Positions 8,472-8,646 of a stretch of DNA of 64,000 bases are shown piece by piece. The notes beneath the pieces were generated by a model, which saw only the letters and a program-made list of their open reading frames with translations, did not search any database and had not been told where the DNA came from. Positions within the stretch are counted from its first letter, which is position 1. The number at the start of each line of letters is the position of its first letter. The position numbers were made by a program, and so were the translations under genes. The stretch comes from Escherichia coli (lineage in GTDB: Bacteria; Pseudomonadota; Gammaproteobacteria; Enterobacterales; Enterobacteriaceae), in the NCBI RefSeq assembly GCF_003018115.1, contig NZ_CP027457.1; one strand, given 5' to 3'.

Positions 8472-8646
8472 TTAAAAGCGACTCAATTCGTTATATGGCA
8501 TCAGAAGAGTATGCGTCATGCCGGAACGCCCAGCATAAGAAATCTGATATAAAAACTGTGGCGTGTATGGTACGGATTAGAGGGGAAAATGTCAGCACAT
8601 TTGCGAAATGAATCAAAAAGCCCGCAGCAATGTGCGGGCGTTAGTG

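Follow-up and report, generated by a model that had tools for sequence, protein, structure and literature searches.

The locus at positions 8472..8646 of the window (the whole 64-kb stretch of E. coli DNA analyzed here) is almost certainly an unoccupied attachment site (attB) of lambdoid prophages of the Rac type, with its sequence in the ancestral state. The 26-bp core of the site is intact, it is present in a single copy with host DNA on both sides, and the adjacent ttcA gene begins with its native N-terminal codons. Empty sites of this kind are already known from the work of Liu et al. 2015 (Sci Rep 5:16074, PMC4632033), and the feature is an ordinary one. That study placed Rac between ttcA and ttcC', found experimentally that excision of Rac alters four N-terminal residues of TtcA to give TtcA', reported the TtcA' N-terminus in 10 E. 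coli and 4 S. flexneri strains that do not carry a rac-like prophage, and concluded that TtcA' is the ancient copy.

The ttcA–uspF junction

Genes in this part of the window are arranged in the order zntB, fnrS, dbpA, ttcA, uspF, ompN, micC and ydbK (coordinates in Table 1). The annotation of K-12 MG1655 places “cryptic prophage Rac” (23,060 bp, with intR, xisR ... pinR, ynaE, ynaM) between ttcA and uspF, along with a 51-nt pseudogene, ttcC (loci b1344 for ttcA, b1345 for intR and b4638 for ttcC). An earlier note on this DNA, made from its letters alone, had claimed that Rac is absent here, that ttcA and uspF are only 175 bp apart and that the spacer holds the uspF terminator. All three statements proved correct. 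A single intact core was found, and the rest of the 64-kb window yielded no match to Rac DNA and no integrase ORF, and was collinear with the non-Rac K-12 chromosome. The spacer has a run of five A residues at its one point of difference from the K-12 ttcC–uspF spacer, which has six. No RNA family was detected within the 175 bp using Rfam at gathering thresholds.

The terminator hairpin begins 8 nt past the uspF stop codon, has six G-C pairs in its seven-base-pair stem and is followed by TTTTT. Its folding energy is −14.1 kcal/mol (z = −3.95 versus shuffled sequences), and the stem is kept in Citrobacter and in Escherichia sp. E1V33. With a G+C-rich hairpin and a U-run just 3′ of the stop codon, it is predicted to act as a Rho-independent terminator.

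Table 1. Positions of the features discussed in the text, numbered from the first nucleotide of the window.
Feature	Coordinates	Strand	Evidence or remark
McaS	2179..2274	-	Rfam, above gathering score; position expected from K-12
FnrS	5652..5769	+	Rfam, above gathering score; position expected from K-12
ttcA, tRNA 2-thiocytidine(32) synthetase, 311 aa	7536..8471	-	NCBIfam NF007972 TtcA, 513.6 bits (cutoff 272)
attB core for Rac-like phages, 26 bp, TTGTTCAGGTTGTATTGTTCTTTCTT	8422..8447		ttcA nt 25-50, codons 9-17
Native ttcA codons 1-8 (MSQNQEIS), the segment swapped by Rac-type insertion	8448..8471	-	identical to K-12 attR/ttcC
15-codon upstream ORF	8472..8519	-	ORF position; TAA abuts ttcA ATG
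uspF-ttcA spacer, exactly 175 bp	8472..8646		1 base differs from K-12 ttcC-uspF spacer
Small leader hairpin, GCTGG-GCGTT-CCGGC	8520..8534	-	Citrobacter form GCCGG-ACTAT-CCGGC
Candidate native ttcA promoter: -35-like CTGACA (8595..8590), -10-like TACCAT (8572..8567), 17 nt apart	8567..8602	-	consensus scan 9/12; putative function
Palindrome AAATGT-GCTG-ACATTT	8602..8587	-	perfect; overlaps -35-like hexamer; in most conserved block
uspF intrinsic terminator, stem GCCCGCA-CATTGC-TGCGGGC (8620..8639), then TTTTTGATTC	8610..8639	-	7-bp stem, 6-nt loop, T-run
uspF, universal stress protein F, 144 aa	8647..9081	-	NCBIfam NF011581 UspF, 303.3 bits (cutoff 166), covers 1-144 of 144
MicC	10580..10700	+	Rfam, above gathering score; position expected from K-12
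RydC	53684..53747	-	Rfam, above gathering score; position expected from K-12
sok-type antitoxin (hokB/sokB locus)	54307..54458	-	Rfam, above gathering score; position expected from K-12

Comparison with the occupied site of K-12

The window was aligned to K-12 ttcA, ttcC and the attL and attR junctions of Rac, as the earlier note had proposed. K-12 carries two exact copies of the 26-bp core (attL and attR) at the annotated ends of Rac, and identity between the copies stops at both core edges. The window carries one, with no second copy even when up to three mismatches are allowed (zero expected by chance), and the record of phage Rac-SA53 labels this same 26-bp sequence as att. On the left of the core, the window corresponds to the attL side of K-12 (the body of ttcA), and to the right it corresponds to attR (ttcC and then the uspF spacer), apart from the one spacer base. 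Over the 24 nt immediately beyond the core, attR matches the window exactly, whereas the phage segment at attL matches at 17 of 24 positions and differs at seven. Both chromosomes share the same core and the same host gene order (dbpA, ttcA, uspF, ompN); K-12 has two cores 23,060 bp apart and a TtcA start supplied by the phage, while the window has one core and the native start.

The exchange is visible in the protein. TtcA begins MSQNQEIS in the window and MQENQQIT (MQENQQITKKEQY) in K-12, and the two proteins differ at residues 2, 3, 6, 8 and 290, the first four of these being the N-terminal differences. Translation of K-12 ttcC gives a peptide identical to the N-terminus of TtcA from the window. 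The earlier note had held that the two N-termini differ and that in K-12 the phage provides the first codons of ttcA. It gave both N-termini accurately, and the second claim is borne out by the identical cores, the phage-like 24-nt flank at attL and the agreement of attR with the window. The same note had named, as grounds for giving up its reading, a K-12 N-terminus matching that of the window together with an altered core; the N-termini differ, and the core is identical to those of K-12 at 26 of 26 positions.

Phage integrases and attP

IntR of Rac contains the domains Arm-DNA-bind_2 (PF12167) and Phage_integrase (PF00589), and XisR matches an excisionase family. The integrase of phage PHB10, which is encoded next to the attP of that phage and is 69% identical to IntR, also has both PF00589 and PF12167. 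With this domain content, both proteins are predicted to be tyrosine recombinases of the lambda Int type, with an arm-binding domain.

A phage-form attP was sought in a phage collection using the reconstructed Rac attP as the query, and PHB10 alone showed one. PHB10 is a complete phage genome of 57 kb with phage genes on both sides of attP. Its core matches TTGTTCAGGTTGTATTGTTCTTTCTT at 24 of 26 positions and is followed by a mimic of the ttcA 5′ end that encodes MQENQQNT. Rac-SA53, vB_EcoS-683R6 and SPF_0923 were dropped as sources of phage-form attP, being prophage deposits with host flanks (ttcA/dbpA or uspF/ompN). Note that the phage-collection records ON032529.1 (“Salmonella phage SPF_0923”), ON470595.1 and KU052037.1 consist of predicted prophages together with stretches of the host chromosome (dbpA/ttcA or uspF/ompN/ydbK), and that in SPF_0923 the manganese-transporter genes sitABC lie at the end of the prophage beside attR.

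Both arms of the reconstructed Rac attP contain repeats of the motifs GGGGCAAA and GGGGCATAA, as does PHB10. The repeats lie at 26760..26959 and 3926..4000 of the extracted K-12 locus for the Rac arms, and at approximately 2555..2600 in PHB10. Repeats of the GGGGCAAA type are candidate arm-type binding sites for the integrase.

These elements outline the mechanism, and the PHB10 attP demonstrates directly how ttcA can stay whole while its start is exchanged. Rac-like phages encode an arm-binding tyrosine integrase (IntR) and an excisionase (XisR). In their attP, the 26-bp core matches ttcA codons 9-17 exactly or almost exactly, and beside it the phage carries an imitation of ttcA codons 1-8 that has upstream sequence of its own. 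A crossover in the core places the phage after codon 8 of ttcA, ahead of codon 9. The gene stays intact, with its first eight codons and everything upstream exchanged for phage DNA, and the native start codons and upstream region are stranded beside uspF as the ttcC remnant. In the window this insertion has either never occurred or been exactly undone, leaving MSQNQEIS and the native upstream sequence in place. The crossover presumably falls within the 26 bp. Judging from the identity of its core, attB in the window should be competent for integration as a substrate for an IntR-type integrase.

Occupancy among complete E. coli genomes

Contiguous ttcA–uspF was found in 2487 of 5426 complete E. 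coli genomes (∼46%), and a full K-12-type intR lies beside ttcA in 1834. Forty records spread through the matches were inspected; all 21 that were occupied break at window positions ∼8462-8464, as K-12 does. Among 30 rows of the spread sample, about 14 had an empty site and about five had an integrase sharing only the 3′ end of intR, corresponding to roughly 900 genomes. Two O157:H7 strains in the spread sample differ, F7386 being empty and ATCC 43888 occupied. The best match to the first 25 kb of the window among complete RefSeq E. coli genomes was 99.2%; the 15 closest genomes over this length are all empty at ttcA, and the best matches are of mixed serotypes. The 1.85-kb junction is 100% identical to that of strain 2013C-3342, which has an IS5 element between ompN and nifJ where the window has none.

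Ancestral state of the ttcA start

Outgroups were scanned using one genome per species and a degenerate pattern over TtcA codons 9-21. This returned 120 loci, of which 114 had enough upstream flank to be classified. In 8 of the 114, uspF lies within ∼200 bp upstream of ttcA (Citrobacter werkmanii, C. braakii, four other Citrobacter, one MAG and Escherichia sp. E1V33), and all eight begin with MSQNQ(D/E)(I/F)S. Since MSQNQ-type starts are shared by empty sites of Escherichia and Citrobacter, the native state is older than the split between these genera. The description of the site as unoccupied and ancestral, also made in the earlier note, is thus supported with respect to the sequence state of the ttcA start by the outgroups with empty sites. 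The reading of that note as a whole also agrees with the 2487 contiguous E. coli genomes and with the mimic in the PHB10 attP.

IntR-like integrases, complete or fragmentary, are encoded within 400 bp upstream of ttcA in 60 of the 114 species representatives (Enterobacterales), and many of these are short remnants of 60-150 aa. Loci with an MQxNQ-type start have such an integrase or fragment within 400 bp upstream in 43 of 52 cases. Exceptions are Pseudescherichia vulneris and Kosakonia sp. S29, which have an MSQNQ-type start with an adjacent integrase (full length in P. vulneris), and these imply that some phages of the family carry an MSQNQ-type mimic. Integration at the 5′ end of ttcA is very widespread and recurrent, this site being among the most heavily used in Enterobacterales, and it probably explains the high variability of the first eight TtcA residues between species. 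In Escherichia albertii NBRC 107761 (ttcA ATG near 3394 of the extracted locus, in ttcA orientation), TtcA begins MQENQQIT, an integrase fragment of 124 aa lies 54 bp upstream and uspF is 2.35 kb away; the prophage of this strain is reduced to a remnant of ∼2 kb.

Alternative histories of the site

The site might once have held a Rac-like prophage and have been restored by precise IntR/XisR excision, in which case it would be cured rather than naive. Such a history differs from that of a never-occupied attB in the past only and predicts the same present locus. Excision of Rac in K-12 regenerates exactly the attB and the TtcA' seen in the window (Liu et al. 2015, PMC4632033), the patchy occupancy within E. 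coli (the O157:H7 split and the mixed serotypes among the best matches) implies frequent gain and loss, and many species carry prophage remnants beside ttcA. Because precise Int/Xis excision is scarless and regenerates the same attB, never-occupied and restored sites are indistinguishable by sequence, which gives neither history preference. However, all 15 of the closest genomes are empty as well, and a native state common to Citrobacter does not require past occupation. Overall we regard prior occupation as unlikely, although it deserves more weight than either of the alternatives that follow.

A prophage could also have been lost by homologous recombination through RecA, with attL and attR serving as the repeats (an exact match of 26 bp and, next to it, 17 of 24 matching nucleotides). 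These repeats are present in lysogens, and a crossover in the 26-bp core would give the product observed here, which is also the product of site-specific excision. A crossover in the imperfect 24 nt, however, would yield a chimeric N-terminus, and none is found in the window. Moreover, a stretch of 26 bp is very short for RecA to act on, and we consider this route very improbable. Even less credible is an assembly artefact in which the strain carries the prophage and the assembly dropped it or collapsed it at the repeat. Prophage ends are classic points of misassembly, and nothing more specific speaks for such an error. Against it, ttcA and uspF are joined in the same way in 2487 complete genomes, the junction is a base-perfect attB with a native N-terminus and a single core, and collapse over 26-bp repeats would be unusual for modern assemblers.

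The region upstream of native ttcA

An unoccupied attB keeps ttcA joined to its native upstream sequence, which is itself conserved. The 143 nt that run from the uspF terminator to the ttcA ATG (8472..8614, minus strand) are 82-85% identical to the corresponding Citrobacter sequences, versus 54-63% at third-codon positions of ttcA; for Escherichia sp. E1V33 the values are 99% and 79%, respectively. This region is therefore conserved more than the synonymous sites of ttcA.

Within it lie the palindrome, the putative promoter and the small leader hairpin listed in Table 1. The promoter scan is weak when taken alone (two sites versus 1.7 expected), with TACCAT/CTGACA as the sole promoter-like match upstream of ttcA in the spacer. 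The block containing the palindrome and promoter is found without mismatch at −131 from the ATG in all eight species with empty sites. In a small sample of three species with prophage remnants (E. albertii, C. youngae and Citrobacter sp. Cu233), the block has one or two mismatches and remains on the uspF side, 0.6-3 kb from ttcA. We know of no fit between the spacing of the palindrome (AAATGT-N4-ACATTT) and the consensus sequences for Zur, TyrR, LexA, marbox or NsrR. The 15-codon ORF was considered as a conserved peptide and dropped, as most of the substitutions that separate Escherichia from Citrobacter in it are non-synonymous and more distant species do not retain its in-frame stop codon; no sign of coding constraint was seen.

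Conservation and position suggest that the block may comprise the native promoter and leader of ttcA. Rac-type insertion leaves the 143 nt beside ttcC and uspF, away from ttcA. We propose tentatively, and with slightly less than even confidence, that these nucleotides form a conserved regulatory module that is uncoupled from ttcA by Rac-type insertion. A promoter for ttcA is not discussed in Liu et al. 2015 (PMC4632033), and a literature search for one in E. coli found nothing.

Other differences from K-12 in the window

Besides Rac, three K-12 segments are missing from the window, at 38523/38536, 40567/40568 and ∼58242-58246. These correspond to K-12 positions 1465063-1474003 (ynbG and ydbA, with IS2D and IS30C), 1476023-1478327 (the 3′ part of ydbD, ynbA and the start of ynbB) and 1496005-1496322 (inside ydcJ), respectively. 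The ydcJ ORF in the window (57529..58263) encodes 244 aa versus 447 aa in K-12. The arrangement at 38300-41000 is common to a few E. coli lineages, for example O169:H41, in which the ydbD-like gene is annotated as “polymer-forming cytoskeletal protein”; the downstream junction markers match genomes of the O169:H41 type at only 98.5%. The difference between ydbD and ynbB was considered as a fresh deletion, and this was dropped upon finding that other E. coli annotate the gene as a different allele, which makes the segment an allelic variant.

Relation to known systems and significance

Phages that replace one end of a host gene are familiar from e14 and phage 21, which insert in icd and replace its 3′ end. 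In these cases a near-copy of the gene end in attP keeps the gene intact, and the opposite junction retains a short pseudogene fragment. Rac at ttcA shares with them an attP that carries a near-copy of the displaced gene end. Unlike them, Rac replaces the 5′ end, and hence the start codon, the ribosome-binding site and the promoter region are exchanged as well.

The site described here shares its locus, the four residue differences and the conclusion that TtcA' is ancient with Rac-cured K-12 and with rac-free E. coli and Shigella (PMC4632033). There is no difference in kind between our findings and those of Liu et al. 2015 (PMC4632033). The sample has been widened to 5426 complete genomes from 27 strains, and outgroups from Citrobacter and Escherichia sp., together with a phage-form attP, have been added.

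For the strain itself the value of the finding is small, and consists of a correct annotation and of the assignment of the native TtcA' allele. The strain does not carry the Rac genes (recET, kilR, ralR, racR, trkG and others) at ttcA, and Rac-like phages should be able to lysogenize it. If the 143 nt upstream of native ttcA are indeed regulatory, then about half of E. coli, being lysogens at ttcA, would express this gene from signals on the phage side, near intR, and would do so without native control. Integration would then rewire the expression of ttcA, an effect distinct from the four N-terminal substitutions that were reported in 2015.
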